Assembly (NCBI GenBank): GCA_934633985.1
Contig: CAKTYU010000001.1
Span: 93,500 to 157,499, forward strand
DNA: 64,000 bases
Reading direction: 5' to 3'
Source: an uncultured Clostridia bacterium
GTDB taxonomy: Bacteria; Bacillota; Clostridia; Christensenellales; CAG-138
A model generated the notes under the pieces. That model saw nothing but the letters and a program-made list of their open reading frames with translations, was not told the origin of the DNA and did not search any database. A program made the position numbers and the translations under genes. Positions within the stretch are counted from its first letter, which is position 1, and every line of letters starts with the position of its first letter. Shown one piece after another: positions 4,321-22,874 of the stretch.

Positions 4321-4324
4321 ATAT

Positions 4325-8000: not shown

Positions 8001-8795
8001 ATGCTGAAGCTGGACAATATATGTAAGACCTTCAATCCGGGTACAATAAACGAAAAAAAAGCGCTGCAGAACCTATCGCTGACCCTTAAGCCGGGCGACT
8101 TTGTAACGGTGATAGGCGGCAACGGCGCGGGCAAGTCCACCATGCTCAACGCCATAGCCGGCGTATGGCCTGTGGACAGCGGCTCCATAACCATCGACGG
8201 CATAAACGTCACGGGCGAATGCGAGTACAAGCGCGCCGCCTACATAGGCCGCGTGTTCCAGGATCCTATGCTGGGCACCGCGCCGAATATGCAGATAGAG
8301 GAAAACCTTGCGCTGGCAATGCGCCGCGGCAAGCGCCGCGGGCTGCGCTGGGGCGTCACAAAGGCTGAGCGGGAGCAGTACCGGGAAAGGCTGAAGGGCC
8401 TGGGCCTCGGCCTTGAGGACAGGATGACGGCAAAGGTGGGGCTGCTCTCCGGCGGCCAGCGGCAGGCGCTGACATTGCTAATGGCGTCGCTGCAAAGGCC
8501 GAAGCTGCTGCTGCTGGATGAGCATACCGCCGCGCTGGATCCCGCCACCGCCAAGAAGGTGCTGGACATATCCGACAGCATCATCAGGGAAAACGGTCTT
8601 ACCGCAATGATGATAACTCATAACATGAAGGACGCCATAAACCACGGCACAAGGCTCATTATGATGAACGAGGGGCATATAATACTCGACGTGGAGGGCG
8701 AAGAAAAGAAAAAGCTAACCAAGCAGCAGCTGATGGAAAAGTTCGCCGAGATAGCGGGCAAGCAGGTGGAATCCGATAGGATACTGCTGTCGTAA
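8001..8795 (+). CDS. ABC transporter ATP-binding protein
   Basis: Walker A GGNGAGKST, signature LSGGQRQ, Walker B LLLLDEHTAALD. Confidence 0.9.
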   Translation: MLKLDNICKTFNPGTINEKKALQNLSLTLKPGDFVTVIGGNGAGKSTMLNAIAGVWPVDSGSITIDGINVTGECEYKRAAYIGRVFQDPMLGTAPNMQIEENLALAMRRGKRRGLRWGVTKAEREQYRERLKGLGLGLEDRMTAKVGLLSGGQRQALTLLMASLQRPKLLLLDEHTAALDPATAKKVLDISDSIIRENGLTAMMITHNMKDAINHGTRLIMMNEGHIILDVEGEEKKKLTKQQLMEKFAEIAGKQVESDRILLS

Positions 8796-8796
8796 G

Positions 8797-9130
8797 CTTC
8801 TGCTCAGACAGAATAGGGGGCGCCGCCTAAAAAGCGGAGCCCCTTCAGTCTGTCGAAAAACCGTGGGGTTGTTAAGGGGCCGCAGCCCCTTAAGTTAATT
8901 CCGGCTTTGACGACATGTGCGTCAAAACGGATGAAAACCGGAGGTTTTCGCACTTTACGGGTTTTGCCGCCCGGGAACGAATGTGAGAGGCAAAACCCGC
9001 AAAAACTCGAAAAAGTGGTCTTTAGCCACTTTTTCGACACTCTGTAGGGCCCCGCCCGATAAAAGCGGGACCCCTTTAATATCGACATTTTTGCAGGGCA
9101 GCGTCACGCGCTGCCGAGCTTAAGGCGAAT
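8797..9130. repeat. Cluster of at least five consecutive imperfect hairpins (REP/MITE-like intergenic repeat array)
   Basis: Hairpins lie at about 8808..8862, 8870..8893, 8906..8928, 8960..9000, 9008..9036 (CGAAAAAGTGG/CCACTTTTTCG) and 9045..9075. A 37-nt block at 9001..9037 is identical to 14076..14112. The track ORF 8804..9088(-) is probably spurious. Confidence 0.7.
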
Positions 9131-9131
9131 A

Positions 9132-9335
9132 TTACATATCCGCGCAGGGATTATTGGCCGGGCCCATGTTCAGGGTAAGGCCGGCGGTTATGCTGCTTTG
9201 CAGAATGTTCAGGCATTCTCCGAAGCGCTGGAAGTGAACTATCTCGCGCTCCCTGAGGAAGCGCAGGGGATTGATTATGGCAGGGTCGTCCGTCAGCACC
9301 ATCAGGTGCTCGTAAGTTGCTCTCGCCTTCTGCTC
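9132..9335 (-). CDS. cotJC: cotJC 3' segment (codons 136-202 plus stop of a split manganese-catalase-family spore coat gene)
   Basis: This minus-strand frame lacks a start codon and is not in the track. It translates as EQKARATYEHLMVLTDDPAIINPLRFLREREIVHFQRFGECLNILQSSITAGLTLNMGPANNPCADM*. This is collinear with the remembered B. subtilis CotJC C-terminus (AAEEKARATYQWL...LRFLREREIVHSQRF). Confidence 0.85.
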   Translation of the reverse strand, partial: EQKARATYEHLMVLTDDPAIINPLRFLREREIVHFQRFGECLNILQSSITAGLTLNMGPANNPCADM

Positions 9336-9363
9336 TGCCGCTGTATCGAAAGGGCAACATTTT
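9336..9363. repeat. Element-terminal inverted repeat, left arm (attP half-site within attL)
   Basis: Minus-strand sequence AAAATGTTGCCCTTTCGATACAGCGGCA. It matches 24 of 28 positions with the inverted arm at 21834..21861. Confidence 0.85.
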
Positions 9364-9369
9364 TCCGCG

Positions 9370-10935
9370 CTAAAAGCTCCAGTGTATTTCCAAAGGCACC
9401 TCCCAGCTTCCGGGCGGGCGCTTTCCTATATATATGCGCTCTATCAGGGCTTCTACTGCGGCGCGGTCCAGCGATTCCAGCAGCAGCGGCAGCTTTTCCG
9501 GCTCCGGCGGGCGATACGCCCGCGCAAGCTCCGCCGCGCCGCTTGCAGCGGCTTGCGTTAGCCGCTGCTTTTCGGCGGAGATGCGCTTTAGGGCGTCTGA
9601 AAAGTCGGCCTCGCTCACGCGGCCCTCCGCCCTGTCCAAATAAAGACGCGCCAAGGCCGCGGAGCATGCCTCCACGCGCCCCTGAAGCCTTGATACGCGC
9701 TGGGATAAGTCCCGCGCCAGCTGCGGGCTGCCGCGCCGGAGATATAGCTCCTTCAGCATATTTTCATCGAGGCTTTCTGCGGCGATGCGGTTCGCCTCGC
9801 ACAGCACGGCCCTCTCCAGCCGCTTTACGGATATGAAGCCGCCGGGGCAGGCGTCCTTTGAAATATAGCGGCGGCTGCACCGAAGGTAGCCCTCGCCATG
9901 GCTCTTTGCGGAGCGCATGGGGCCCTTGCAGCAGGCGCAGTATACCCTGCCGGAAAAAGCGCCCGCCCTGTTGCCGGAAAAGGGGCGGGCCCTTTCGGAT
10001 ATGAGCTGCTGCACGCTCTGCCACAGCCTTTCATCTATTATCGCCTCGTGGGTGTTTTCCACCCTGAACCACAGCTCCGGCGGCCTTGGCACGCTGCGCT
10101 TGGTCTTGTAGGATGCGCTGCCGTACCTGCCCTGAACCATATTGCCGATGTAGACCTCATTTTTGAGCATACGGGATACCGTGCCGTACTGCCACAGCCC
10201 GCCGCCGGGGGAAGGTATGCCGCGGGCATTGAGCTCCCGGGCTATGGAGGTCTTTCCCCGGCCGAGCGCGAACAGCGAGAATATCTCCCGCACTGCGGCG
10301 GCCTTTTCATCATCTACTATGAGGCGTCCCTTACGGTGTGGGTCCTTGGCGTAGCCGTATGGCGCGGAGGAGCCTATGTGCAGCCCCAGCCTCCTGCGGC
10401 TGTCGAGCACGCTCTTTATGCTCTCAGACATATCCTCGAGGTACCACTCGTTCACGAGGCCGTTTATCTGGCGCGCCTTTTTGTTGCCGGGGTCGTCGGT
10501 GTCGCAGTTGTCCGCCACGCTCACGAAGCGTATGCCCCAAAGCGGGAAAAGGCCGTGTATGTACTTTTCCACCAGCTCTAACTCACGGGTAAAGCGGGAT
10601 TGGGTCTTACACAGTACTACGTCGAAGTTTTTTGCTTCCGCGTCCCGCAAGAGCCTGTTGAATTCCGGCCTGTTCCTGTCCGCACCGGCATAGTCGTCGT
10701 CGCTGTATATATCGTATATCTCCCAGCCCTGCGCGGCGGCGTACTGGGCGAGCAGCAGCTTCTGGTTCTGTATGCTTCCGCTGTCCGCGCCCTCCGCCCT
10801 GCCCTTGTCCTCCTCGGAGAGCCGGCAGTATATGGCGGCCCTCATGCGCCCCGCCTTTTGCACAGCATTTGCAGCCACCTTTCCGCCAGCAGCCTTTTGT
10901 CGGGAAGCCCGCCGCTTTTGAATACGCTTTTGCAT
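9370..10935 (-). CDS. Large serine recombinase (resolvase/invertase N-domain, recombinase domain and zinc-ribbon)
   Basis: Contains AAIYCRLSEEDK...SIQNQK...YSDDDYAGADRNRPEFNRLL...VVLCKTQSRFTRE (catalytic Ser region), then the recombinase domain, Cys pairs CACC...C and a C-terminal coiled coil. The stop is 6 nt from the terminal inverted repeat. The start is uncertain: the track's GTG at 10962 abuts the SD, so ATG 10935 or ATG 10845 is more likely. Confidence 0.9.
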   Translation of the reverse strand: MQKRIQKRRASRQKAAGGKVAANAVQKAGRMRAAIYCRLSEEDKGRAEGADSGSIQNQKLLLAQYAAAQGWEIYDIYSDDDYAGADRNRPEFNRLLRDAEAKNFDVVLCKTQSRFTRELELVEKYIHGLFPLWGIRFVSVADNCDTDDPGNKKARQINGLVNEWYLEDMSESIKSVLDSRRRLGLHIGSSAPYGYAKDPHRKGRLIVDDEKAAAVREIFSLFALGRGKTSIARELNARGIPSPGGGLWQYGTVSRMLKNEVYIGNMVQGRYGSASYKTKRSVPRPPELWFRVENTHEAIIDERLWQSVQQLISERARPFSGNRAGAFSGRVYCACCKGPMRSAKSHGEGYLRCSRRYISKDACPGGFISVKRLERAVLCEANRIAAESLDENMLKELYLRRGSPQLARDLSQRVSRLQGRVEACSAALARLYLDRAEGRVSEADFSDALKRISAEKQRLTQAAASGAAELARAYRPPEPEKLPLLLESLDRAAVEALIERIYIGKRPPGSWEVPLEIHWSF

Positions 10936-11014
10936 ATAGGTACTTTTTCCAAAAAACAACACCTCCCGTATATAGATATTACGGCGCGGCGGCGGTTATA
11001 ATACAGCCTGTGAT

Positions 11015-11029
11015 ATCTATATAATAGAT
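11015..11029. promoter_or_regulatory. LTTR-type dyad ATC-N9-GAT (T-N11-A box) in the recombinase/lysR divergent region
   Basis: ATCTATATAATAGAT is read directly from the sequence, about 100 nt upstream of the lysR start. A second 9-bp inverted repeat is TATAGATAT (10971..10979) / ATATCTATA (11014..11022). Confidence 0.35.
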
Positions 11030-11129
11030 AACGAATATTGCATTATATAAAATTTGAATAGATGAGCGATGGGCAAAGAATTTGCGTTGTTGTATACTAT
11101 ATGAGATTAAGGATTAAGGTGGGTTTGAT

Positions 11130-12092
11130 ATGGATATCAGCCTTAGGCAGCTTGAGGCATTTATAAAGGTAGCGGAGCACAGGAGCTTCTCCAAGGCGGG
11201 AGACGAGCTGTTTTTGAGCCAGTCTACCATAAGCAGCCATGTGGCGCAGCTTGAGCAGTCCCTTCAGGTGACGCTGATAAAGCGCCGTGAAAAGAAAAAC
11301 ATAGAGCTTACGGGGGAGGGGCAGAGGGCGTATCGCGCAGCGCAGGTGATAATCAACCAGGCGGAAATGCTGCAAAATATGTTCCGCAAGGAGGAGGCCG
11401 ACCAGCCCCTCATATCCATCGCCGCCTCCACGGTGCCATCGAGCTACATACTGCCGGGCATAATGACGGGTTTTTCCGACATCAGGCCGGAATGCAGGTT
11501 TTCCGTGCTGGATGGGGACAGCTCCTTCGCCCTTGAGCGGCTGCAAAACGGCGAGGCCGTGTTCGCGTTTGTGGGCACCAGCAGCCGCAAGACCGTATTC
11601 AGCTACCATACCGTCTGCCGGGACAGGATGGTGCTCATCACCCAGAACAACAAGGAGTTTGCCGAAAAAAAGGAAATGGGCGTGCTGGGCAAGGAGCTGT
11701 TGGAGTGGCCTATGATAATGCGGGAGAGCGGCAGCGGTACCCGCCGGGAGACGGACAACTACCTAAAGAGCATAGGAATGTCCTCGGCGGAGCTCAACGT
11801 GGCGGGCTATATGAACAACATCGAGGGGATAAAGAGCATGGTCGCCGCCGGAAAGGGCACCACCATACTTTCGGAGCGGGCGGCGGCAGACGCCATACGC
11901 GACGGGCGGGTGCTTTGCTTCGACCTCGAGGAGGACGGGCCGTATAGGGATATATACATCGCCTACCTCAAGAACCGCAGCTTCACACAGACGGAGCAGG
12001 CGTTTTTGAATTATGTTAGGAACCGCGGCGGCGAAAAGCCTAAGCAGAGCAAGAATAACAAAAACAACAAGAAAGCACTTAAGGAGGCATGA
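11130..12092 (+). CDS. LysR family transcriptional regulator
   Basis: N-terminal HTH LRQLEAFIKVAEHRSFSKAGDELFLSQSTISSHVAQLE, followed by a LysR substrate-binding domain and a K/N-rich tail. Confidence 0.9.
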   Translation: MDISLRQLEAFIKVAEHRSFSKAGDELFLSQSTISSHVAQLEQSLQVTLIKRREKKNIELTGEGQRAYRAAQVIINQAEMLQNMFRKEEADQPLISIAASTVPSSYILPGIMTGFSDIRPECRFSVLDGDSSFALERLQNGEAVFAFVGTSSRKTVFSYHTVCRDRMVLITQNNKEFAEKKEMGVLGKELLEWPMIMRESGSGTRRETDNYLKSIGMSSAELNVAGYMNNIEGIKSMVAAGKGTTILSERAAADAIRDGRVLCFDLEEDGPYRDIYIAYLKNRSFTQTEQAFLNYVRNRGGEKPKQSKNNKNNKKALKEA

Positions 12093-12098
12093 CGAAAA

Positions 12099-12707
12099 AT
12101 GGCAGACGTAAAGGTAAACGCGGTAGGCGAGCAGTGCCCTATACCGGTAGTAAAGGCTACCAAGGCGCTGGGCGAGTTTAAGGAAGCGGGCACCCTCGAG
12201 GTGCGGGTGGACAATGAAATAGCCATACAGAACCTTACCCGCCTTGCGGACAGCAAGGGACTGAAGAGCAGGAGCGAAAAGCTGGGGGATAATCTTTTCG
12301 CTATCACCATGGAGGTGAGCGGCCCGCTGACCATGGGCGGCGAGGATCTATCCTGCCATACTGACAGCAGGGGCGACTTTGTGGTGGCGATAGACGCGGA
12401 TACCATGGGCCGCGGCTCCGATGATTTGGGCCGCACGCTGATGAAGGGCTTTATCTTTGCCGTGTCCCAGCTCGAGGCCCTGCCCAAGACCATACTGTTC
12501 TACAACGGCGGCGCCAAGCTCACCGTCGAGGGCTCCGTATCGCTGGAGGATCTTAAGAGCATGGAGGCTCAGGGCGTGAACATACTAACCTGCGGCACCT
12601 GCCTTAACTTCTACGGCCTTACCGATAAGCTGGCGGTAGGCAGCGTCACCAACATGTATGTAATAGTAGAAACGCTGGCCAAGGCCGGAAAGGTCATCAA
12701 GCCGTGA
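12099..12707 (+). CDS. yedF: YedF-type sulfurtransferase-like selenium metabolism protein (TusA/SirA-like domain plus DsrE-like domain)
   Basis: The N-terminal VNAVGEQCPIPVVKATKAL carries the TusA CPxP motif. The C-terminal LFYNGGAKL...ILTCGTCLNFYG is DsrE/YedF-like. Confidence 0.75.
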   Translation: MADVKVNAVGEQCPIPVVKATKALGEFKEAGTLEVRVDNEIAIQNLTRLADSKGLKSRSEKLGDNLFAITMEVSGPLTMGGEDLSCHTDSRGDFVVAIDADTMGRGSDDLGRTLMKGFIFAVSQLEALPKTILFYNGGAKLTVEGSVSLEDLKSMEAQGVNILTCGTCLNFYGLTDKLAVGSVTNMYVIVETLAKAGKVIKP

Positions 12708-13837
12708 TCTACCTCGACAACGCCGCAACTACACTGCACAAGCCTCAGCAGGTGATAGACGCGGTGGTCCATGCCATGCAGTCCATGGGCAACTGCGCCC
12801 GGGGCACCCACGAGGAGGCCCTTGACGCGGCCCGCACCGTATACGACGCCCGCGTAAGGCTGGCGTCGCTTTTCGGCTGCCCCAGGGCGGATCACGTGGC
12901 CTTCACTGCGAACTCTACCGAGGCGCTGAACATCGCCATAAACGGGCTTATAGGCCCCGGCGACCATGTGATATCGACGGATCTCGAGCATAATTCCGTG
13001 CTGCGCCCGCTCTACCGTCTCCAGACGGAGCAGGGGACAGAGCTCAGCTTTGTGCCGGCGGATAAGCTCGGCAGCGTGGATTATGAGGACTTTGAGAGGC
13101 TCATAAGGCCGAACACGAGGGCAATAGTATGCACCCACGCCTCAAATCTCACGGGAACCGTGCTGGATATAGAGAAAATTGCAAAAACAGCCCGCAGCCA
13201 CGGCGCGCTTATGATAGTTGACGCCTCCCAGACGGCGGGCTGCTGGCCCATCGACATGAAAAAAATGGGCATAGACGTGCTGTGCTTTACCGGGCACAAA
13301 GGGCTTATGGGCCCGCAGGGCACCGGCGGCCTGTGCGTCAGGGAGGGCATAGAGATACGCCCCTTTAAGGTGGGCGGCTCCGGCGTGCAGTCATACAGCA
13401 GGACCCAGCCGGCGGAGTACCCTACCAGGCTGGAGGCGGGCACGCTGAACGGTCACGGCATAGCGGGGCTATGCGCTGCGGCGAGTTTTATATCCGAGAC
13501 CGGCGTGGAGGCCATACACGCAAAGGAGCGTTCGCTCATGCTGCGCTTTTATGAGGGCGTGAGGGCCGTCGAGGGCGTAACGGTATACGGCGACTTTACA
13601 AGGGACAAGACCGCCATAGTCGCGCTCAACATTCGGGATTACGAATCCGGCGAGGTGTCGTATGAGCTTTCGGAGAGCTACGGCATAGCTACCCGCCCTG
13701 GGGCCCACTGCGCCCCCCGTATGCACAAGGCCCTCGGCACGGATGAAACAGGCGCGGTGCGCTTCAGCTTTTCCTTCTACAATACGGAGGAGGAGACAGA
13801 CGAGGCGATAAGGGCTGTGGCGGAGCTTGCGCGATGA
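12704..13837 (+). CDS. Class V aminotransferase-fold cysteine desulfurase / selenocysteine lyase-like protein
   Basis: IYLDNAATT at the N-terminus, FTGHKGLMGPQGTGGL (PLP Lys) and RPGAHCAP (active-site Cys loop). A GTG start overlaps the yedF stop. Confidence 0.8.
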   Translation: MIYLDNAATTLHKPQQVIDAVVHAMQSMGNCARGTHEEALDAARTVYDARVRLASLFGCPRADHVAFTANSTEALNIAINGLIGPGDHVISTDLEHNSVLRPLYRLQTEQGTELSFVPADKLGSVDYEDFERLIRPNTRAIVCTHASNLTGTVLDIEKIAKTARSHGALMIVDASQTAGCWPIDMKKMGIDVLCFTGHKGLMGPQGTGGLCVREGIEIRPFKVGGSGVQSYSRTQPAEYPTRLEAGTLNGHGIAGLCAAASFISETGVEAIHAKERSLMLRFYEGVRAVEGVTVYGDFTRDKTAIVALNIRDYESGEVSYELSESYGIATRPGAHCAPRMHKALGTDETGAVRFSFSFYNTEEETDEAIRAVAELAR

Positions 13838-14070
13838 GAGAAAAAAAGCTTTGGCTTATAATAACCTTCCGTACAACTACGGCCGCCATGGCCATGGAGA
13901 GCCTCTGCGCCGGAAAGGGGCTGCCGGGGCGGCTAATACCCGTGCCGAGGGAGATAACCGCCGGCTGCGGAATGAGCTGGCGGGCTCCGGTGGAGAGCAA
14001 GGCTGAGCTCATCGAGGCAGCGGAGCAGGCCGGCATAGCCACGGACGGCGTATATGAAATAGTTATCTGA
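13834..14070 (+). CDS. DUF3343 (putative Se/S carrier-like) small protein
   Basis: 78 aa. The pattern LIITFRTTTAAMAMESLC...GRLIPVPREITAGCGMSW matches the DUF3343 pattern. The start overlaps the upstream stop. Confidence 0.7.
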   Translation: MREKKLWLIITFRTTTAAMAMESLCAGKGLPGRLIPVPREITAGCGMSWRAPVESKAELIEAAEQAGIATDGVYEIVI

Positions 14071-14075
14071 CCCGA

Positions 14076-14138
14076 AAAAACTCGAAAAAGTGGTCTTTAG
14101 CCACTTTTTCGAAACTATAAGGCCCCCGTAAGGGGGCC
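14076..14138. repeat. Second copy of the double-hairpin repeat seen at 9001..9075; probable bidirectional terminator
   Basis: AAAAACTCGAAAAAGTGGTCTTTAGCCACTTTTTCGA is identical to 9001..9037. It is followed by the hairpin AGGCCCCC-gtaa-GGGGGCCT. Confidence 0.75.
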
Positions 14139-14317
14139 TGTTTTACAGCGCGGAGACCAACCTGCCAGGTCGATGTTATGTGTATAATCAATAACGGGAA
14201 GCTCTTATCTGAAACGTGATTTGCAAAACAAAGGTTGCTTTGATAACATCTCTGTAGTTCCTATAAGGATGAGGCTTACTCATCCAGCTTTTATAATATC
14301 ATCAGGAGGTACTAACA

Positions 14318-14803
14318 ATGCACATCAAGAAGGAAATCAGTCCCAAGAAGGTACAAAAGGCAGCGGAAGATAATTTCCGCAACGGTTTTTTCTGCTGTGA
14401 GGCGCTGGTGCAGGCCATACGCGATAACTTTGAGCTGGATGTACCCAAGGAGGTAATAGCAATGTCCTCCGGCATGGCGGTAGGCGTGGGCGGATCGGGC
14501 TGTATCTGCGGCGCGCTCAACGGCGGCGTAATGGCGCTCGGTATGTTTTTCGGGCGCACTGAGCCCAATGGCCCGAAGGATCCCGTCGTAGTAAAGTGCA
14601 AGGAGCTGACCCATGAGCTGCACGACTGGTTCAAGGCCAACAACGGCAAGAACGCTATATGCTGCCGCGTGCTTACCAAGGAATTTGACATGGGCAAGGG
14701 CGAGCACAAGGAGCAGTGCATACGCTTTACCGGATTGGTAGCCTGGAAAGTGGCGGATATAATCGTGCGCGAGCTGGGCCTCGTAAATCTGGATGAGCAA
14801 TAA
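14318..14803 (+). CDS. C_GCAxxG_C_C family (putative redox-active) protein
   Basis: 161 aa. Contains FFCCEALVQA and GSGCICGALNGGVMALG, plus further Cys residues (CCRV, QCIRF). Confidence 0.8.
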   Translation: MHIKKEISPKKVQKAAEDNFRNGFFCCEALVQAIRDNFELDVPKEVIAMSSGMAVGVGGSGCICGALNGGVMALGMFFGRTEPNGPKDPVVVKCKELTHELHDWFKANNGKNAICCRVLTKEFDMGKGEHKEQCIRFTGLVAWKVADIIVRELGLVNLDEQ

Positions 14804-14829
14804 AGCCCGCTGAAAAAGAGGAAAAATAC

Positions 14830-15768
14830 ATGAAGAACGCGATCAAGAAAGTACCTATACCGATTTGCGGTGTTATGCTGGGCATGGCGGCGCTCGGCAA
14901 CCTTTTGCAGAGCTATTCCGAGGGGATAAGGTCTGCCTGCGGCATAGTTGCGGCGATACTTATGGTGCTGTTCCTGCTGAAGGTCATTATGTTCCCCCAA
15001 ATGATAAGGGAGGACATGAATAATCCCATAATGGCCAGCGTATCCGGCACCTTCTCCATGGCGCTGATGCTTCTGGCGGGTTATGCAAAGCCCTTCATGG
15101 GAGCCGCCGCCATGTATATCTGGTTCATAGCTATTGCGCTGCATGCGGCGCTGATAGTCTACTTTACCGTTAAATTCATATTCAAGCTGGATATGAAAAA
15201 GGTATTCGCAAGCTATTATATAGTTTACGTCGGTATAGCCGTAGCCGCCGTTTCCGCGCCTGCATTTGATCAGCAGGACATAGGCGCGGCTACCTTCTGG
15301 TTCGGCTTTGTTACATTATTGGCGCTGCTCGTGCTCGTTACCGTAAGGTATGCAAAGTACAAGGAGATACCCAACCCCGCAAAGCCCCTGTTCTGCATTT
15401 ACGCAGCCCCCGCAAGCCTCTGCGTTGCGGGCTATGTGCAGTCTGTGACCCCCAAGTCCTACGGCTTCCTTATGGCGATGTACGCTCTGGCGGCAGCGCT
15501 GTATGTAATCGCGCTGGTCAAGGCCATAGGCTTCCTGAAGCTGCCGTTCTTCCCCAGCTATGCGTCCTTTACATTCCCCTTTGTAATAAGTGCAATAGCC
15601 TCCAAGCAGACCATGGCCTGCGCCGCAAAGATGGAGATGCCGCTGCCCTTCCTCAAGTACGTGGTGCTCATTGAAACGATAATAGCCACAGTGCTGGTCC
15701 TGTATACGCTGGTGCACTTCATGGCGTTCATATTTACCAAGCCAAAGGAAGCGGCAGCCGCTAAGTAA
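14830..15768 (+). CDS. TDT family (tellurite-resistance/dicarboxylate, TehA/SLAC1-like) transporter
   Basis: 312 aa with about 10 TM segments. The N-terminal VPIPICGVMLGMAALGNLL is typical of TehA-like proteins. Confidence 0.7.
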   Translation: MKNAIKKVPIPICGVMLGMAALGNLLQSYSEGIRSACGIVAAILMVLFLLKVIMFPQMIREDMNNPIMASVSGTFSMALMLLAGYAKPFMGAAAMYIWFIAIALHAALIVYFTVKFIFKLDMKKVFASYYIVYVGIAVAAVSAPAFDQQDIGAATFWFGFVTLLALLVLVTVRYAKYKEIPNPAKPLFCIYAAPASLCVAGYVQSVTPKSYGFLMAMYALAAALYVIALVKAIGFLKLPFFPSYASFTFPFVISAIASKQTMACAAKMEMPLPFLKYVVLIETIIATVLVLYTLVHFMAFIFTKPKEAAAAK

Positions 15769-15792
15769 AAACCAAATAATGACCTGAAAACC

Positions 15793-15828
15793 GGGCGTTA
15801 TCGGCATGGGCCATAACGCCCCTTTTGT
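15793..15828 (+). terminator. Intrinsic terminator / palindromic repeat unit
   Basis: GGGCGTTAT...ATAACGCCC followed by CTTTTGTT. It shares GGCGTTATCGGC and ATAACGCC with the hairpin at 17508..17538. Confidence 0.65.
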
Positions 15829-15959
15829 TATCGCTTGTTTGAATTTTATCAGCATCGGGCGTAATGGTATAATAATATTATCAGGAAGTACGCGCCGACA
15901 GTCGGACGCGCCATTTAGAAGATCAAAAGCAAAAAACAAATCATACGGAGGTACTCTAA

Positions 15960-17237
15960 ATGTCAGATTATGTACAGATGTGGAAAGACCTGGGCATGGA
16001 TTTGGAAAACCATGATATGCTGTGCCAGGTGCTGCCTACCGCGGTGGGAGACGTGTTCCTCACCCAGCAGAACAGGCCGAAGGCCATGGATTTCTGGGAT
16101 CTGGTAATATCCGAGGTACACGGCATCCGCCCCGCCGAGCTCATAGCCGCGCAAAAGGAAGGCCGCAAGGTATTCGGCACCTTCTGCGTGTACGTACCGG
16201 ACGAGGTGGTCATAGCCGCAAACGGCATAGTCACAGGCCTCTGCGGCGGAAGCCAGTTCTGGGTGCCCGGCGGCGAGACCGTGCTGCCCAAGAGCACCTG
16301 CCCTCTCGTAAAGGCCTCGGTGGGCGCACGCCTCGGGCGCACCTGCCCCTTCTTCCGCATAGCGGATATGTACGTAGGAGAGACCACCTGCGACGCCAAG
16401 AAGAAGGCGTATGAGATACTGGGCGAGGACGTTCCCATGTATGTAATGGACGTTCCCCAGATGAAGCGCGAGAAGGATATTATAAAATGGAAGGACGAGA
16501 TAGCGGAGTTTGCGAAGAAGGTGGAGGAGTTCACCGGAAACAGCATAACCCCCGAAAAGCTGGGCGAAGCGATCAAGATAATAAACAACAGGCGCAGGGC
16601 TATGGCGAGGGTATACGATGCGCGCAAGTCCGAGTGCCTGCCCATATCCGGGCGGGACGTGCTGCTCATGACGCAGATATCCTTCTTTGACGATCCGGTA
16701 CGCTGCGCGGAGATGTGCAACAGGCTGGCGGACGAGCTGGAGCAGCGCATAAAGGACGGCGTATCCGTGGTTCCTGCGGGCACCAAGCGCATACTCGTCA
16801 CCGGCACGCCCATGGCGGTACCCAACTGGAAGCTGCATAATATAATAGAGACCAGCGGCGCGGCAGTAGTATGCGAGGAGATGTGTACGGGCACACGTTA
16901 TTTCGAGAACCTTGTGGACGAGACCAAGACTACGCTGGACGATCAGTTCATGGCGCTGTCCGAGCGGTACATGAAGACCAACTGCGCCTGCTTTACCCCA
17001 AACCATGGCCGCATAGATGATCTGCTCAGGATGGTGAAGGAATACAAGGTGGACGGCGTTATTGATTGCAGCCTGAAGTTCTGCTGCCTGTATGATACCG
17101 AGAAGTACAGCGTGGCCCGCGCCCTCAAGGAAGCCGGAGTACCGGTGCTCGGCCTTGAAACGGACTATGCCGACACCGACGCCGAGCAGCTCCGCACCCG
17201 CATAGGCGCGTTCATAGAGATGCTCAACAACAGATAA
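15960..17237 (+). CDS. 2-hydroxyacyl-CoA dehydratase / benzoyl-CoA reductase BcrC-BadD-HgdB family protein (double-cubane-cluster-protein type)
   Basis: 425 aa. Conserved Cys-rich motifs include CVYVPDE, TGLCGG, TCPL, GETTCDAKKK, CEEMCTG, CACF and SLKFCC. Family assignment is by remembered pattern. Confidence 0.7.
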   Translation: MSDYVQMWKDLGMDLENHDMLCQVLPTAVGDVFLTQQNRPKAMDFWDLVISEVHGIRPAELIAAQKEGRKVFGTFCVYVPDEVVIAANGIVTGLCGGSQFWVPGGETVLPKSTCPLVKASVGARLGRTCPFFRIADMYVGETTCDAKKKAYEILGEDVPMYVMDVPQMKREKDIIKWKDEIAEFAKKVEEFTGNSITPEKLGEAIKIINNRRRAMARVYDARKSECLPISGRDVLLMTQISFFDDPVRCAEMCNRLADELEQRIKDGVSVVPAGTKRILVTGTPMAVPNWKLHNIIETSGAAVVCEEMCTGTRYFENLVDETKTTLDDQFMALSERYMKTNCACFTPNHGRIDDLLRMVKEYKVDGVIDCSLKFCCLYDTEKYSVARALKEAGVPVLGLETDYADTDAEQLRTRIGAFIEMLNNR

Positions 17238-17503
17238 TGTCCGACGTAAGGTACTATGTGCTCTTTGCAAACTATGAGCAGGGGCTTAAGCTGCACGGCA
17301 TATTGGACGGCGCCGGGGTGGAGAACAGGATAGCGCCGGCTCCCCGCTGCATACAGGGTGAGCTTTCCTGCGGTATGTCGCTGCTCATCGAAAAGGAGCA
17401 TATCGGAGAAGCAAGGTCGGTCATAGCGGCCTCCGGGGCGGAGTATCACGATATCGTCCCGCTGGAGGGGCAGATGAAGGCGCATAGGGATAAGTATTGT
17501 TAG
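17237..17503 (+). CDS. DUF3343 (putative Se/S carrier-like) small protein, second copy
   Basis: 88 aa, with YYVLFANYEQGLKLHGIL...RIAPAPRCIQGELSCGMSL. The start overlaps the upstream stop (ATAATG). Confidence 0.65.
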   Translation: MSDVRYYVLFANYEQGLKLHGILDGAGVENRIAPAPRCIQGELSCGMSLLIEKEHIGEARSVIAASGAEYHDIVPLEGQMKAHRDKYC

Positions 17504-17507
17504 GGAT

Positions 17508-17543
17508 ACGGCGTTATCGGCTTTGCCGATAACGCCGTATTTA
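17508..17543 (+). terminator. Palindromic hairpin (weak terminator) related to 15793..15821
   Basis: ACGGCGTTATCGGC-tttg-CCGATAACGCCGT forms a 13-14-bp stem. The downstream U-tract (ATTT) is weak. Confidence 0.5.
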
Positions 17544-17641
17544 AGATCGCTTCTGTGAATTTGGAATAATGGCGTATAAATGCTATCATGTGTTGGCCGG
17601 GCTTATCCCCGGCAGAGAATAACGAGAAACGGAGAAAAACA

Positions 17642-18620
17642 ATGAAAAAGCTGATTGCTGTTATCATGGTGCTTGCCATGGCGATGAGCCTTGCAGCCTG
17701 CGCCGCCCCCGCAGCCCAAGAGACGACTGCCCCCGCGGAAGAAACCGCCGCCCCCGCCGAGGAGGCTGCCGCCCCCGCAGAGGAGGCCCCCGCGTTCCAG
17801 TCCTCCATACTGTTTTGCGGCTCCACCTCCCTTTATCCCATAATTTCCTCGCTGGCTTCCTCCTTTACCGAGGGCTTTGTGACCTGGGATAAGGTGGACG
17901 CTTCCTTCCCCGACAGCAATATTTCCATTTATGTAGCGCCCGGCGGCTCCGGCGTTGGCGTGAGCGCCGCTGTTGACGGCACTGCTGACTTCGGCATGCT
18001 GGCCCGCGATATAAAGGATTCCGAGATAGAGGCCCTTGGCGCGGACTATCAGGATTACGTAGTGGCGAAGGATGCGCTGACCGTGTCCGTAAACGCCGAG
18101 AACCCCATCTGCAAGGTCATTGACGACATGGATACCGATACCATCCGCAAGATCTTCGCCGGCGAGATAACCACATGGGATCAGGTTGACGCCACCCTGC
18201 CCGCAGAGGCCATCAACGTATACATCCGCGACCTTTCCGGCGGCGCATACGAGGTATTCCAGAAGTCCGTAATGGGCGACAGCGAGGTCACTCCCGCCGC
18301 CACCCAGTCCGCCTCCATGACCGAGCTGGCCACCAATATCGCCGGGCGATCCCTGGGGCATAGGCTATGCAGGCTTTGGCGCCTACAACAAGGCTAACGC
18401 CGAGAAGCAGGTGCTCTTTGCCATGAAGGTAGACGGCGTTGAGGCAAACGAGGAGAACATCATCAGCGGCGAGTACAAGATACAGCGTCCCGTAATGTTC
18501 GTTACCGGCAAGCCCGTATCCCCCGCGGCCCAGGCCTTCATAGACTACATCTTCTCCCAGACCGGTTACGATGTAGTAGTGAAGAACGGCTATATCCCCG
18601 CCTTTACCCCTGCCGCGTAA
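17642..18620 (+). pseudogene. pstS: Phosphate ABC transporter substrate-binding lipoprotein PstS, disrupted by a +1 frameshift near 18344..18346
   Basis: Lipoprotein signal MKKLIAVIMVLAMAMSLAAC. The track splits it into 17588..18397 and 18411..18620. Removing one G from GCCGGGCGAT restores ...TNIAGDPWGIGYAGFGAYNKA... Confidence 0.75.
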
Positions 18621-18705
18621 TACTTCTTACATCGGTATAATACGTGCTGTCGGCGCAAAAATACGCCGGCAGCATTTGTGCGTTATAAACAGGAGCATAT
18701 TTCTC

Positions 18706-19578
18706 ATGCAAAAGAGACTTGAAAGGCTGTTCAGGCTGTTCATAGGGCTGCTGGCGCTGCTTGCCGTCGCATCCCTCGCATTCGTGATATTTTTTATAGT
18801 AAAGGAAGCCCTGCCGCTCTTTGGCGAAGTCAGCATAGGTGAGCTTTTGTTAGGAAAGAGATGGATGCCCATTGCCTATGTGGGGGAGCCCTCCTTCGGG
18901 ATATTCAACTTTATAATGGCTACGCTATACGTATCGCTGCTGGCTATGATAATAGCCTCGGCGGTGGGCATAGGCGCGGCGCTGTTCTTGTCCTGCGTCG
19001 CGCCATTGAAGGTGCGTGAGCTAATGTATCCGTTCATAGACCTGCTGGCGGGCATACCCTCCGTGATATACGGCTTTATAGGGCTCGTGGTGCTGGTAAG
19101 GCTCTTTATGAAGCTGGGAGTACATACCGGCTCCTGCGTGCTGGCGGCGGCCATACTGCTTAGCGTCATGCTGCTGCCGTACATCATCTCATCGTGCAGC
19201 GAGACCATACTCAAGGCCAAGGAAAGGTACCTGCCCGCGTCAAACGCCATGGGGATAGACAAATGGCACGCCATAGCCTCCGTCATACTTCCCGCGTCGT
19301 GGGGCAACATACTGCTTTCCATGATACTGGCGATAGGCCGGGCCATGGGCGAGACAATGGCGGTCATGATGGTCATAGGCAATGCGAACCTTTTCCCCAC
19401 TCTGCTGGGAAAGAGCGAGACCATCGCCGCGGTGATAGCGCTGGAGATGGGCACGGCGGAGGCGGGCAGCCTGCATTACCACGGCCTGTACGCCGCGGGC
19501 CTCGTGCTGATGGTGCTGCTTTTCATAATAAACGCAGTTATCGCCGCGCTTAGGTCAAGGCTCATAAGGGAGGCATAG
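18706..19578 (+). CDS. pstC: Phosphate ABC transporter permease PstC
   Basis: Polytopic, with the EAA-like loop IGRAMGETMAVMMV. The start is moved to ATG 18706, downstream of AGGAG. Confidence 0.85.
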   Translation: MQKRLERLFRLFIGLLALLAVASLAFVIFFIVKEALPLFGEVSIGELLLGKRWMPIAYVGEPSFGIFNFIMATLYVSLLAMIIASAVGIGAALFLSCVAPLKVRELMYPFIDLLAGIPSVIYGFIGLVVLVRLFMKLGVHTGSCVLAAAILLSVMLLPYIISSCSETILKAKERYLPASNAMGIDKWHAIASVILPASWGNILLSMILAIGRAMGETMAVMMVIGNANLFPTLLGKSETIAAVIALEMGTAEAGSLHYHGLYAAGLVLMVLLFIINAVIAALRSRLIREA

Positions 19579-19579
19579 C

Positions 19580-20413
19580 ATGAAGGGAAGGATAACAAAG
19601 CTCTGGGCATACATAAGCATAGCGCTGGTGGCGGCCTCCATACTCTTCCTGTTCGCATACGTCTTTATACGGGGCGCGGGAACCATAACATGGGAGTTCC
19701 TTTCCCAGCCGCCCAAGGGCGCCATACTGGGCATGGAGGGCGGCGTATGGCCGGCCATAGCGGGCAGCCTGTGCTTTACGGCCGTGGCCATAGTGCTGGG
19801 CGGCATACCAGCCATAGCCGCCGCGCTTTATATAGTATTCTATTGTGAGAACAGGCGAATCGAGAAGGCGTTCCACACTGTAATACGCTGCATATCCGGC
19901 ATACCCTCCATAGTACTGGGCCTGTTTGCATACAGCTTCCTTGTGAGGGAGCTTCAGTGGGGCAGATGCATACTCTCCTCCGGCGTGGCGCTCGGCATAA
20001 TGATACTGCCATTTGTGGAGGTGAGGGCGGAGAAGGCGTTTCAGGAGCTTCCCAAGGCGGTAGTGCTTTCCTCGTATGCGCTGGGCTGTTCAAAAAGGTA
20101 TACGATAATGAAGATAGTGCTTCCCGCCTGCAAGGGCGAGCTCATATCCGGCCTTATACTGGGCGGGTGCTACGCCATGGGCGCAACGCCGCCGCTGATA
20201 TTTACGGGGGGCGTAGCATACGCGAGCGCGCCCACCAGCCTTATGAAGCCCGCCATGGCGCTGCCGCTGCACCTGTACCTGCTGCTGGCCCAAGGCGCTA
20301 CCTCCTTTGACATGGCATACGGCACGGCATTCGTGATGATGACGATAATACTCATAAGCAACCTACTGGCAACTATATACGCAGCAAGGAGTCACGCAAG
20401 ATGGAAAGCATAA
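19580..20413 (+). CDS. pstA: Phosphate ABC transporter permease PstA
   Basis: 277 aa and polytopic. LGCSKRYTIMKIVLPA is typical of PstA. Confidence 0.85.
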   Translation: MKGRITKLWAYISIALVAASILFLFAYVFIRGAGTITWEFLSQPPKGAILGMEGGVWPAIAGSLCFTAVAIVLGGIPAIAAALYIVFYCENRRIEKAFHTVIRCISGIPSIVLGLFAYSFLVRELQWGRCILSSGVALGIMILPFVEVRAEKAFQELPKAVVLSSYALGCSKRYTIMKIVLPACKGELISGLILGGCYAMGATPPLIFTGGVAYASAPTSLMKPAMALPLHLYLLLAQGATSFDMAYGTAFVMMTIILISNLLATIYAARSHARWKA

Positions 20414-21150
20414 TGCGAATTGAAGATCTGACGGCGGCATACGGCAAAAAGACGGTGCTGCACGACATAAGCCTCGACATACCGAAGCGGGGCATAACCG
20501 CCATAATAGGCCCTTCGGGCTGCGGCAAGACCACGCTTCTGCACTGTATGAACGGTATGCTTGGGGAAAACAGCGAGGCCGCGGTATCCGGCCATATCTA
20601 CCTTGGGGACAGGGATACGGCTAACATCCCCCCCGATGAGCTGCGCCGCAGGGTGGGGCTGGTGTTCCAGACCCCGTCGCCCTTCCCGTTTTCCGTTTAC
20701 AAGAACATGACCTATGGGTTAAAATACTACGGTAAGACCGGTAAGAAGGAGCTGGAGAGCGCGGTAATAGAAAAGCTCCGTACAGTCGGCCTGTACGACG
20801 AGGTAAAGGACGACCTGAACAAGAGCGCAATGAAGCTCTCCGGCGGGCAGCAGCAGAGGCTCTGCATCGCCCGCGCGCTCACGGTGGAGCCGGAGGTGCT
20901 TATGATGGACGAGCCCTGCTCGGCGCTCGACGTGAAGGCCACGGCGGTGATAGAGGATATGCTGTCGGCTATGAAGAAGGATTACTCCATAGTGATAGTC
21001 ACCCACAACATCGCCCAGGCAAAGCGCATAGCGGACGAGGTAGCGGTGATATTCGACGGCCGGCTGATAGAAAAAGGGCCGGCGGCGGAGGTGTTCGAGC
21101 TGCCGAAGCAGCAGCTCACCCGCGAGTTCCTTGCGGGGATATACGGATAG
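20413..21150 (+). CDS. pstB: Phosphate ABC transporter ATP-binding protein PstB
   Basis: GPSGCGKTT, VFQTPSPFPFSVYKN, LSGGQQQRLCIARAL and VTHNIAQAKRIAD are present. Start is at ATG 20413 or 20401. Confidence 0.9.
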   Translation: MRIEDLTAAYGKKTVLHDISLDIPKRGITAIIGPSGCGKTTLLHCMNGMLGENSEAAVSGHIYLGDRDTANIPPDELRRRVGLVFQTPSPFPFSVYKNMTYGLKYYGKTGKKELESAVIEKLRTVGLYDEVKDDLNKSAMKLSGGQQQRLCIARALTVEPEVLMMDEPCSALDVKATAVIEDMLSAMKKDYSIVIVTHNIAQAKRIADEVAVIFDGRLIEKGPAAEVFELPKQQLTREFLAGIYG

Positions 21151-21159
21151 GGGGAAGGC

Positions 21160-21627
21160 ATGATAAGGATAGACATACCCGGGCGGGATATGATCGAGAT
21201 AGAGCATGTGGTGCTGGATTATAACGGCACGATAGCCCTGGATGGAAAGCTCATAGAGGGCGCGGCGCGGCGCATAAGGGAGCTTTGCGGCAGCGCCCGC
21301 GTCTACATACTTACGGCGGACACCTACGGCACGGTTATGGCCCAATGCGGCGGCCTGGGCGCGGAGGTAAAGACCTTTCCGCGGGCCAACGCCTCGGAGT
21401 GCAAGGAGGAGATAGTGCGCGCCCTCGGCGGAAAGGCTGCCTGTATTGGCAACGGCTTCAACGACATAAGGATGTTCGACGCGGCGGAGCTTTCCATCGC
21501 CGTAATGGACGGCGAGGGAGTGTGCGCCGCACTCATAGCGCACAGCGACGTATTGGCGCGCAGCGCGGAGGAGGCCCTCGACCTGCTGCTTAAGGGGGAC
21601 AGGCTCCGCGCCACCCTCAGGACATGA
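21160..21627 (+). CDS. HAD-superfamily protein (soluble P-type-ATPase-like domain)
   Basis: 155 aa. Contains VLDYNGT (a DxxGT-like motif), ILTADTYG and IGNGFNDIRMF (the HAD GDGxND equivalent). Confidence 0.65.
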   Translation: MIRIDIPGRDMIEIEHVVLDYNGTIALDGKLIEGAARRIRELCGSARVYILTADTYGTVMAQCGGLGAEVKTFPRANASECKEEIVRALGGKAACIGNGFNDIRMFDAAELSIAVMDGEGVCAALIAHSDVLARSAEEALDLLLKGDRLRATLRT

Positions 21628-21799
21628 CGCGGCATACAAGTAAACTGATTGATAAAATAGATAACAGCCGACATGATATCTTAGCTTTGTATTTGTAATA
21701 AGCCCGAATAGGTGCTATTATAAATACAGATAAAGAACCGGCTGAAATAAAAACCTCTTATTCTTATTTCTTACTTGACCAATACAGCGGAGAAAGAAA

Positions 21800-21830
21800 C
21801 ACTGCCATGAAGGGCAGTGCTTCTTTTTTT
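21800..21830 (+). terminator. Intrinsic terminator closing the plus-strand pst/HAD operon just inside the element end
   Basis: CACTGCC-atgaag-GGCAGTG forms a 7-bp stem, followed by CTTCTTTTTTT. Confidence 0.6.
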
Positions 21831-21833
21831 CGT

Positions 21834-21861
21834 AAAATGTTGCCCTTTCAGCGCAGCGGCA
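21834..21861. repeat. Element-terminal inverted repeat, right arm (attP half-site within attR)
   Basis: Plus-strand sequence AAAATGTTGCCCTTTCAGCGCAGCGGCA. It is the inverted partner of 9336..9363, with 24 of 28 positions matching. Confidence 0.85.
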
Positions 21862-21863
21862 TC

Positions 21864-22268
21864 TGCTGCCATGTCCTCGGTAATATCGGTTATCGGGTCG
21901 CCCGTACACTGGAGAGAGGCGGCGGTGAAGGGTACGCCGTTGGGGTCGGCGGGGTATACGCCCTTGGAGTGCATGGTATAGTAGCCCATAAGCCCCGCGG
22001 CCTCGATCTCCTCCAGCGTCGCATCGCGCAGGCATTGGTGTATCATGGTGCCTATCATCTCCCAGTGGGCGAGCTCCTCGGTGCCTATGTCGTTGCAGGT
22101 GGCCTTTACCCGGTTATCCGGCATGGAGAAGCGCTGGGTAAGGTAGCGGCAGCCTGCGGCAAGCTCGCTGTCAGGCCCGCCGTATTGGGCCATGAGCGCC
22201 TTTGCCATGCGGGGGTTGGGCGTTGTTATGTTTACGGGGTATTCCAGCTTTTTCTGATAGATCCACAT
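21864..22268 (-). CDS. cotJC: cotJC 5' segment (codons 1-135 of the split manganese-catalase-family spore coat gene)
   Basis: Translates as MWIYQKKLEYPVNITTPNPRMAKALMAQYGGPDSELAAGCRYLTQRF...IGTEELAHWEMIGTM...GVPFTAASLQCTGDPITDITEDMAA, collinear with remembered B. subtilis CotJC. In the un-rearranged DNA the ORF reads on through 30 element-encoded codons to a stop at 21771. Confidence 0.9.
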
Positions 22269-22283
22269 TTAGTCTTTTCCTCC

Positions 22284-22532
22284 TTAATCCCAGGGCCATT
22301 CGCTGCAAACGTAGCAGCCCGCGGCGGTGGCGGAGTGGCCGAAGTTCATAAGCGGGCCGTACTGCTCCTCGTACGCCGCGATAAGCTCCTTGAGCCGGGC
22401 GGAGTAGTACAGGTAATCGCTGCGGGCGGCGTTGTCGCCGGGGTGGGTGTCGAGATACAGGTTAAGCTCTACTGAAACGAACTGATATTCGCTTATGGTT
22501 TTAAGCAGGTCACACTTGGTCATGTCGTTCAT
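22284..22532 (-). CDS. cotJB: Spore coat protein CotJB
   Basis: 82 aa. EYQFVSVELNLYLDTHPGDNAA...YEEQYGPL is the CotJB family pattern. Confidence 0.85.
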   Translation of the reverse strand: MNDMTKCDLLKTISEYQFVSVELNLYLDTHPGDNAARSDYLYYSARLKELIAAYEEQYGPLMNFGHSATAAGCYVCSEWPWD

Positions 22533-22542
22533 GGCAGCCTCC

Positions 22543-22788
22543 TTACATTACGAGCTCCGGAAAGAGCGTGCCGCTGATCAGGGCCTCGCAGGGGCAGTAG
22601 CCCTGAAGGTAGTCCTGATCCGGAAAGTATGCGGCAGCCAGGGGGACGCTGTTCGCGGCCGATTCGGGGTAGCCGCCGCTGTCCCAGCCGGAGCAGGGCC
22701 GGGTGCTTGCGGCGCCGGCGCCCACAAGTATTCCGCTGTCTGAGCAGACAGGCTCTGCACAGCGGCAGGTATTGTTTTTCAGATTCAC
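22543..22788 (-). CDS. cotJA: Spore coat-associated protein CotJA
   Basis: 81 aa with a GTG start after GGAGG. The C-terminal LAAAYFPDQDY...EALISGTLFPEL is the CotJA family pattern. Confidence 0.75.
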   Translation of the reverse strand: MNLKNNTCRCAEPVCSDSGILVGAGAASTRPCSGWDSGGYPESAANSVPLAAAYFPDQDYLQGYCPCEALISGTLFPELVM

Positions 22789-22874
22789 GGTTTTGCCTCC
22801 TTAGCGCCCCGCGATATGGTATTGCAGGGCATTTATATATGGCATAATATGCAGGGTATGTACGGTAAGGTTAC

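Follow-up and report, generated by a model that had tools for sequence, protein, structure and literature searches.

How can a gene for a spore coat protein stay under selection when it lies on the chromosome in two pieces? This question is raised by cotJC in a 64,000-nucleotide stretch of DNA from an uncultured Clostridia bacterium (the whole stretch is called the window here), in which a 12,528-bp insert (9336..21863) divides the gene and leaves codons 1-135 on one side and codons 136-202 on the other. Along with a large serine recombinase gene, the insert carries genes for selenium metabolism. Indirect evidence makes it likely that the element is excised in the mother cell and that cotJC is thereby rejoined. 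The rearranged genes of this kind that have been studied experimentally are sigK, spsM, spoVFB, spoVR, gerE and yabG, and nearly all of them belong to Bacilli or pathogenic clostridia. The class of elements is well established and includes skin in sigK, SPbeta in spsM, vfbin, vrin, gin in gerE and yin in yabG (PMC4191935, PMC5499854, PMC5595907, PMC10747680).

Structure of the divided cotJ operon

The upstream part of the operon (22788..21864, minus strand) consists of cotJA (22543..22788(-); Pfam CotJA PF11007, E 3e-11), cotJB (22284..22532(-); Pfam CotJB PF12652, E 3e-25) and codons 1-135 of cotJC, which extend from Met1 to ...EDMAA (21864..22268(-)). These codons are part of a 165-amino-acid open reading frame (ORF; 22268..21771(-)) that follows CotJC for 135 residues to ...TEDMAA (...GDPITDITEDMAA) and then enters 30 unrelated codons and a stop, all encoded by the element (21771..21863(-)). 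The tail after EDMAA differs by frameshifts between relatives, among them members of the protein cluster described below, and is thus unconstrained. The missing part of cotJC, codons 136-202 and the stop codon, is located on the same strand at 9335..9132(-). This frame begins with EQKARATYEHLM... (EQKARATYEHLMVLTDD...FLREREIVHFQRFGECLNIL... to the stop) and lacks a start codon at the junction, its sole ATG being internal, at 9302. Read on the minus strand, with a slash for the border, the two junctions are ...GACATGGCAGCAGA/TGCCGCTGCG... and ...GATACAGCGGCAGA/GCAGAAGGCG..., and the pentamer GCAGA is common to both.

Joining 22268..21864 to 9335..9132 yields 609 nt in a single frame, which encode a protein of 202 amino acids. 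The joined product matches the Pfam family Mn_catalase (PF05067, E 8e-50) and is collinear from end to end with intact CotJC homologues, of which the best are 84-88% identical. The motif AAEQKAR, which spans the join and is invariant in the CotJC alignment, is restored together with the motif EREIVH. Alignment with the Mn-catalase fold suggests that codon 136 specifies a metal-ligand glutamate. A second cotJC gene is absent from the window. The first-pass annotation of this DNA had described a cotJC gene split in this way, with its C-terminus 12.5 kb off on the same strand, an uninterrupted 202-residue protein after joining, cotJA and cotJB directly upstream and a large serine recombinase gene abutting one end of the insert. 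The coordinates, the frames and the GCAGA at both breakpoints could be reproduced, the joined protein passed the in-silico comparison, and the identity of the neighbouring genes was borne out by their Pfam matches, the recombinase gene having its stop codon 35 nt from the junction and three Pfam domains.

Independent assemblies deposited in ENA, Logan and NCBI carry identical junctions, and the same structure in independent metagenome assemblies means that it is not an assembly artefact. Samples with carriers include ERZ28615063, ERZ28614275, ERR7738166 and ERR7746113, and the ERZ268584xx set represents the L004 lineage. A terminator-like hairpin (9037..9007(-)) follows the 3' part of cotJC, and a candidate sigmaE-type promoter, ATA-N17-CATATCGC, was found by pattern matching in front of cotJA, about 22 nt from its start codon (22811..22838(-)), so that the rejoined operon would be complete. 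The hairpin is also contained in a 43-nt repeat, AAAAACTCGAAAAAGTGGTCTTTAGCCACTTTTTCGA, which occurs outside the element at the cotJ terminator (8995-9037) and inside it after the first gene for a selenium/sulphur (Se/S) carrier (14070-14112). As a practical consequence, the annotation of such genomes will routinely call cotJC truncated or missing.

Selection on both halves of cotJC

Both pieces of the gene evolve under strong constraint. Between the window and the related lineage L004, the 3' piece differs by 17 synonymous and 4 non-synonymous changes, which corresponds to an omega (ratio of the non-synonymous to the synonymous rate) of 0.049 (binomial p 2e-8). The comparison of the same piece with lineage L016 gives 17 synonymous and 7 non-synonymous changes (omega 0.078, p 7e-7), and for the 5' piece 38.7 and 19.3 changes, respectively, were obtained with L016 (omega 0.098, p 2e-12). 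The 3' piece, which has neither a promoter nor a start codon, is constrained as strongly as the 5' piece. This pattern suggests that the split cotJC remains in use.

At the same time, the divided form is the one that is found in sequence collections. The exact truncated product of 165 amino acids is present on 7 contigs in the public protein collection, its 90% identity cluster comprises 720 members, and the 12 that were inspected all break off at one and the same point. An intact protein of at least 90% identity was not found among 5.8 billion clusters, and an exact look-up of four CotJC proteins joined in silico (window, L001, L004 and L016 types) returned none of them from about 15 billion proteins. 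The interrupted allele appears to be fixed. If a gene is never whole in the germ line and yet strongly selected, it must be reassembled somewhere. Since both halves are under selection and the insert is always present in the germ line, the rejoining is to be expected in a cell that makes use of CotJC but gives rise to no progeny. The sporulating mother cell would be such a cell, as in the cases of skin/sigK, SPbeta/spsM and gin/gerE, and terminal mother-cell excision would be the only known mechanism that fits selection on a gene that is ever interrupted in the germ line.

Attachment sites

The longest inverted repeat of the region is formed by the two termini of the element (9336-9363 versus 21834-21861), which are complementary to 86% over 28 nt. 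In the attP site that was reconstructed from them, AAAATGTTGCCCTTTCgatacAGCGGCA-GA-TGCCGCTgcgctGAAAGGGCAACATTTT, 27 of 38 positions are symmetric about a GA dinucleotide, and because of this symmetry the true crossover most likely takes place at the GA within the shared GCAGA. The attachment (att) sites can be delimited on this basis: attL occupies 21822..21901(-), with the putative GA crossover at 21863-21862 and the element-side arm TGCCGCTGCGCTGAAAGGGCAACATTTT, and attR occupies 9296..9375(-), with the putative crossover at 9335-9334 and the element-side arm AAAATGTTGCCCTTTCGATACAGCGGCA. Both sites are made up of the GCAGA core and 28-nt arms, and their recombination in silico restores the exact reading frame. 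The predicted junctions are GAGGACATGGCAGCAGAGCAGAAGGCGAGAGC for attB and CGATACAGCGGCAGATGCCGCTGCGCTGAAAGG for attP. Five matches to an attP core in IMG/VR turned out to be chance similarities in unrelated sequence.

The recombinase and orfX

The recombinase gene (9370..10845(-)) is oriented like the 3' part of cotJC and ends 35 nt from the attR junction. It encodes a large serine recombinase of 491 amino acids with the catalytic motif YCRLS and the Pfam domains Resolvase (PF00239), Recombinase (PF07508) and Zn_ribbon_recom (PF13408). A start at MRAAIYCRLS fits the homologues of 491 amino acids (P0121), and the YCRLS motif is invariant in the recombinase alignments. The ORF is intact and has an omega of about 0.2. 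DUF4368 (PF14287) gave no match in the window recombinase in the Pfam scan.

Directly upstream lies orfX, a micro-ORF of 36 codons (10842..10952(-)), which is preceded by a GGGAGG ribosome-binding site and whose stop codon overlaps the start codon of the recombinase gene (ATGA). In 70 of 100 loci, the recombinase gene is preceded by a homologue of orfX; these homologues are 33-61 amino acids in length and share the motif CKSVFKSG...FT.KWIELINxLEK. With a ratio of non-synonymous to synonymous polymorphism (pN/pS) of 0.17 in 119 pairs, orfX evolves as a coding sequence under purifying selection. Its product had no meaningful match in Pfam, PHROGs or the PDB, including the chain of the SprA-SprB fusion, and may be regarded as a candidate accessory or directionality factor.

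The same element in related bacteria

Homologues of the recombinase with 97% (P0121), 80% (P0122, P0123), 62% (P0124), 61% (P0126; lineage L016, Acutalibacteraceae) and 51% (P0125) identity were identified, and in every one of these cases the recombinase gene directly adjoins a cotJC fragment with its break at the same codon. The same selenium cargo is present in the 97%, 80% and L016 lineages, and the elements with P0125 carry genes for helix-turn-helix (CI-like) and AAA proteins instead. Compared with the L004 lineage, the element and the chromosomal flank show 87.5% and 88.4% DNA identity, respectively, and the synonymous divergence (dS) ranges from 0.19 to 0.77 for genes of the element and from 0.23 to 0.64 for genes of the flank. 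As the element and its flanks are equally diverged, the element predates the splits between these lineages and has been inherited vertically.

The surroundings of the element vary even between close strains. In the closest relatives, L001 and L002, of which the elements are 97-98% identical to that of the window, a restriction-modification cluster (ResIII/RE_endonuc and several methyltransferases; 12121-20822 in these loci) is located downstream of the 3' part of cotJC, and the corresponding flank of the window (1-9100) carries an ABC (ATP-binding cassette) transporter. The flank is thus variable between near-identical strains.

A recombinase family aimed at one codon of cotJC

A scan of species-representative genomes yielded 80 loci with relatives of the recombinase, which are mostly 52-56% identical and about 517 amino acids long. 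The hosts belong to Oscillospiraceae, Lachnospiraceae, Butyricicoccus, Anaerotignum, Flintibacter, Ruthenibacterium, Blautia and others, and cultured strains such as Flintibacter muris DSM 110149, Anaerotignum lactatifermentans DSM 14214 and Ruthenibacterium lactatiformans 585-1 are among them. Under strict criteria, at least 67 of these 80 loci have a cotJC-type gene with its break at residues 133-136. The broken fragment lies no more than 400 nt from the recombinase gene in 61 of the 80, and cotJB adjoins 20 of 29 N-terminal cotJC fragments. The attachment sites of the family are uniform, with attR reading ...AAAGTTGTTCTTATATGATTGCAGCAGA/GCARAARGC... and attL reading ...GAYATGGCAGCAGA/TGGTGCAATCATATAAGAACAAC..., and they are symmetric about GA. 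The elements of the family span 4.3-10.8 kb and their cargo varies. Among annotated and cultured phages, no close relative of the recombinase was found; the best hit was a partial alignment of 45% identity on an unannotated faecal contig. The C. difficile prophage phi027 was considered as a parallel and dismissed, as the adjacent CotJC-like gene is intact and lies outside attR.

Promoters and timing

Upstream of orfX, a motif of the form ATA-N15-18-CATA occurs in 33 of 59 non-identical regions of the family, compared with 1.6 in shuffled sequences, and the spacer is exactly 17 nt long in 32 of them. The consensus of this motif is TGTAATAnTGGACTTGCnGCTnTTCATATnnTGTATTA, and it includes a GGACA-like box, GGAC(A/T)(A/T)GC. 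We take this box to resemble the SpoIIID box WWRRACAR-Y. In C. difficile, promoters recognised by sigmaE are characterised by ATA in the -35 and CATA in the -10 region, and those recognised by sigmaK by AC and CATA (PMC3789822). The sigmaK-type motif AC-N16/17-CATAnnnTA was detected in only 3 of 59 regions upstream of orfX and the recombinase gene, whereas it precedes cotJA in 12 of 26 loci versus 0.3 in shuffled sequences. The sigmaE-type motif at the recombinase gene and the sigmaK-type motif at cotJA suggest a temporal order, in which the recombinase would be made early in the mother cell and the cotJ products late. The same early/late logic applies to skin, because spoIVCA depends on sigmaE and SpoIIID (PMC517825). 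For the window, expression of cotJC in the mother cell is suggested by the candidate sigmaE-type motif (22838..22811) and by published work on cotJ and cotD (PMC3789822).

The region between orfX and the divergent lysR gene of the element contains an ATAA-N11-TTAT dyad (11028..11046(-)), which is unique in the window and the best-conserved block across 5 lineages. It resembles a binding box of the LysR type, and its position raises the possibility that the LysR regulator also influences the expression of the recombinase. A sigma70-type site, TGGGCA-17-TATACT, faces lysR. A promoter candidate that had been picked manually near the lysR start fails because its spacing is 25 nt. In some relatives a CATA-like box is located just upstream of the ribosome-binding site (CCATATTAT in L004, GCATAGCTAT in L016 and L010).

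Proposed mechanism and alternative explanations

Taken together, the following course of events is likely. A 12.5-kb integrative element that is not a phage resides within codon 136 of cotJC and has become stable there, being inherited vertically. During sporulation, the recombinase, possibly helped by the co-translated product of orfX, would recombine attL and attR at the GA dinucleotide in the mother cell. A circle of 12.5 kb would be released and the 202-codon cotJC gene would be restored behind cotJA and cotJB, thereby providing full-length CotJC for the coat. The chromosome of the forespore would retain the element, and the selenium island would be transmitted to the progeny. That excision occurs, when it occurs, which part orfX plays and that the crossover is at GA are inferred.

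Several observations weigh against mother-cell excision. The host is uncultured, and its ability to sporulate is itself only deduced. The excision product was not seen in the junction searches of public collections (JGI and IMG/VR): the exact predicted attB was unmatched in the JGI metagenome contigs, and queries with the core of this element and with the family core retrieved no genuine attP from IMG/VR. The lineage of the selenium element (window, L001, L004, L010 and L016) has no recognisable sigmaE-type motif of the family in front of orfX, and a weight matrix derived from the family gave no match above 18 bits anywhere in the window. The CATA-like box of L004 and L016 reads CTATAT in the window and in L001, no sigma70-type site on the recombinase strand emerged from the scan, and the region upstream of orfX and the recombinase gene is the control region of the divergent lysR gene. 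Moreover, orfX makes an awkward classical directionality factor, since it is co-translated with the recombinase, and its role is putative. Finally, the PstS-like gene of the cargo is broken in the window into one ORF at 17588-18397 and another at 18411-18620, which indicates some decay, as it is a single ORF of 325-332 amino acids in L001, L002 and L004; the break may be either a frameshift or a sequencing error.

The main competitor of mother-cell excision is an ordinary integrative island that uses the highly conserved site in cotJC as a safe landing pad, leaves it only rarely and independently of sporulation, and knocks the gene out in its carriers. Such a scenario would agree with the mobility of the recombinase family across many families of Clostridia with varied cargo, with the transposon recombinases TnpX and TndX being its closest characterised relatives, with a sporulation promoter that is unrecognisable in the window element and with the partial redundancy of the CotJC-type catalases of C. 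difficile (PMC11222575). However, a gene that has been knocked out should decay, whereas both halves show an omega of 0.05-0.10 at a dS of 0.5-0.8 and the element has co-diverged with its host; moreover, no element-free allele was seen in the lineage and the recombinase operon of relatives has a sigmaE-type promoter. We therefore regard an ordinary island as unlikely. Excision might also be real but be driven by the selenium-associated LysR regulator of the element, or by another signal unrelated to sporulation, through the divergent control region. The ATAA-N11-TTAT dyad is the top intergenic block, is situated some 75-95 nt in front of the orfX start codon and is divergent from lysR, and the family's sigmaE-type motif is absent upstream of orfX in the window. 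However, lysR heads the selenium operon on the other strand and the box may serve that operon only, and excision in vegetative cells would be heritable, so that element-free alleles would be expected, of which none were seen. This makes control by a non-sporulation signal decidedly improbable.

Still less credit can be given to the idea that the pieces of cotJC are never rejoined, be it that two polypeptides assemble non-covalently or that the N-terminal fragment of 135 residues is functional on its own. Co-transcription of the 3' piece is possible, as it follows 35 nt behind the recombinase stop codon on the same strand, and in some lineages (for example L004 and those with ends of the SYMIAA type) an in-frame ATG is located just before the junction. 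However, this ATG is not conserved, since it is absent from the window, L001 and many family members; translation from the only ATG of the window, at 9302, would lose Glu136, and the break would fall inside the metal-ligand helix if the Mn-catalase fold is taken as a guide. That the insert was joined into cotJC by a chimeric assembly can practically be dismissed, as it is refuted by the many independently assembled contigs in ENA, Logan and NCBI that have the same junctions. Thus, excision in the mother cell is the explanation that we favour.

Relation to known systems

Rearrangements of this kind are already known and cotJC is already a listed target; it is this locus that is new. The locus shares several features of the class, namely an interrupted gene of the mother-cell sporulation programme, a recombinase of its own beside an att site, an att join that is in frame and retention in the germ line. 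As in the skin element of B. subtilis, in which SpoIVCA acts on sigK, a mother-cell gene is interrupted and the predicted join is precise and in frame. Moreover, relatives of the cotJC recombinase have a sigmaE-type promoter with a GGACA-type box, and spoIVCA needs sigmaE and SpoIIID (PMC517825). However, skin resides in the gene of a sigma factor and not in a coat gene, the two recombinases are only distantly related, skin is a 48-kb prophage remnant whereas the present element measures 12.5 kb and lacks phage genes, and this cotJC copy of the element has no recognisable sporulation promoter. SPbeta resembles the cotJC element in that a serine integrase rejoins a gene for the spore envelope, spsM, in the mother cell and that the element is retained in the germ line (PMC4191935, PMC5499854). 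Homology between SprA and the window recombinase can be detected (E 9e-12). However, SPbeta is an active phage whose control during sporulation is exerted by a separate gene, sprB, whereas the cotJC element has no phage module, and the sole accessory candidate is the 36-codon orfX, which overlaps the recombinase start and is dissimilar to the PDB chain that contains SprB. A further parallel is gin in gerE of Bacillus cereus, which is not a prophage and encodes a serine recombinase, GirC, and a small directionality factor, GirX (PMC5595907), a role that is putative for orfX. Thus, gin is a precedent for non-viral elements in this function, although target gene, host class (Bacilli versus Clostridia) and cargo differ.

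The gene itself has been mentioned before. According to bioRxiv 10.1101/2021.11.22.469490, Abe et al. 2013 included cotJC among the integration targets, and a skin-like element in cotJC of Laceyella sacchari was noted by Galperin et al. 2022 (bioRxiv 10.1101/2022.02.25.481979). These earlier cases share the target and presumably the kind of element; they are one-line bioinformatic mentions from Bacilli, whereas the present element is hosted by gut Clostridia and carries selenium cargo. In the literature search, which left most subscription journals outside, neither experiments on an element in cotJC nor a recombinase family of gut Clostridia that is specific for cotJC came up.

The closest characterised recombinases are TnpX and TndX from Tn4451 and Tn5397 (TnpX catalytic domain, E 9e-15; TndX, 32% identity). 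The att sites of TnpX and TndX have a central GA dinucleotide, which matches the GA of the cotJC element. However, these transposon recombinases insert at many sites and the cotJC family is specific for one codon. Due to its site specificity, the cotJC recombinase does not belong to the multi-targeting TnpX/TndX group. According to PMC10083194, DUF4368 marks serine recombinases that have multiple targets. This domain was found in many of the relatives with 52-56% identity (among P0127-P0240), although the cotJC family keeps strictly to one site.

With this locus, a well-documented case of probable rearrangement is added for uncultured gut commensal Clostridia, and it is distinguished by its non-phage selenium cargo, its long vertical residence and the pattern at the level of the recombinase family. 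As the element is a selenium island and not a phage remnant, useful metabolic genes can sit in a late sporulation gene and be inherited there for a long time. A broader proposal can be made tentatively, with somewhat less than even confidence: cotJC may be the most widely used locus of programmed rearrangement in gut spore-formers, served in Oscillospiraceae, Lachnospiraceae and Acutalibacteraceae by one recombinase family that is specialised on a single metal-ligand codon, has a sigmaE/SpoIIID-type promoter and an orfX factor, and acts as a germ-line vehicle for varied cargo at no cost to the spore, the cargo of the window being a complete island for selenium utilisation. If confirmed, the family would provide a testable model for the adaptation of mobile elements to the division into mother cell and forespore, as well as recombinases of high site specificity with a defined target of 40-50 bp.

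Selenium cargo and composition

The remaining genes of the insert are all located on the strand opposite to the recombinase gene and represent a selenium-metabolism set. The large ORFs of the insert have metabolic, transport and regulatory functions, and none of them encodes phage structural or lysis proteins, a relaxase, type IV secretion or conjugation. The first group (11130..14070(+)) comprises the LysR regulator (NF040786, selenium-associated LysR regulator; 288 bits at a cut-off of 250), YedF (TIGR03527), a cysteine desulfurase/SclA-like protein (TIGR01977) and an Se/S carrier (PF11823). It is followed by a variable part (14318..15768(+)) with Pfam matches to a C_GCAxxG_C_C protein and a TehA/SLAC1-type transporter, and by the genes for a double-cubane-cluster reductase (15960-17237(+); NF040772, 493 bits at a cut-off of 350) and a further Se/S carrier protein (17237-17503(+); PF11823). 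A PstSCAB-like ABC transporter (17588..21150(+)) was recognised with Pfam and NCBIfam; its PstC-, PstA- and PstB-like genes are located at 18676-19578, 19580-20413 and 20401-21150, respectively. The last gene (21160..21627(+)) encodes a small HAD-like (haloacid dehalogenase-like) hydrolase, which has a weak match to the Pfam Hydrolase family and is kept in all copies of the element.

The segment 14141-15747, which contains the C_GCAxxG_C_C and TehA/SLAC1 genes, is missing from L001, L002 and L016. Between the window and L004, dS is 0.19-0.30 for the genes at 14318-17503 and 0.53-0.77 in the rest of the element. Given the missing segment and the stretch of low dS, the cargo is a mosaic, of which segments have probably been exchanged by recombination. 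The G+C content of the element (56.3%) is close to that of the flanks (56.4% and 57.3%), and outside the element the window is core chromosome with rpsB, tsf, dxr, polC, infB and pnp. An Rfam scan of 8700-23000 gave no match. A 53-nt repeat precedes both the gene for the double-cubane reductase (15794-15846) and the Pst-like operon (17506-17562). The second copy holds a perfect palindrome of 16 nt (ATACGGCGTTATCGGC/GCCGATAACGCCGTAT), and the repeat might serve as a common operator or belong to an RNA element.

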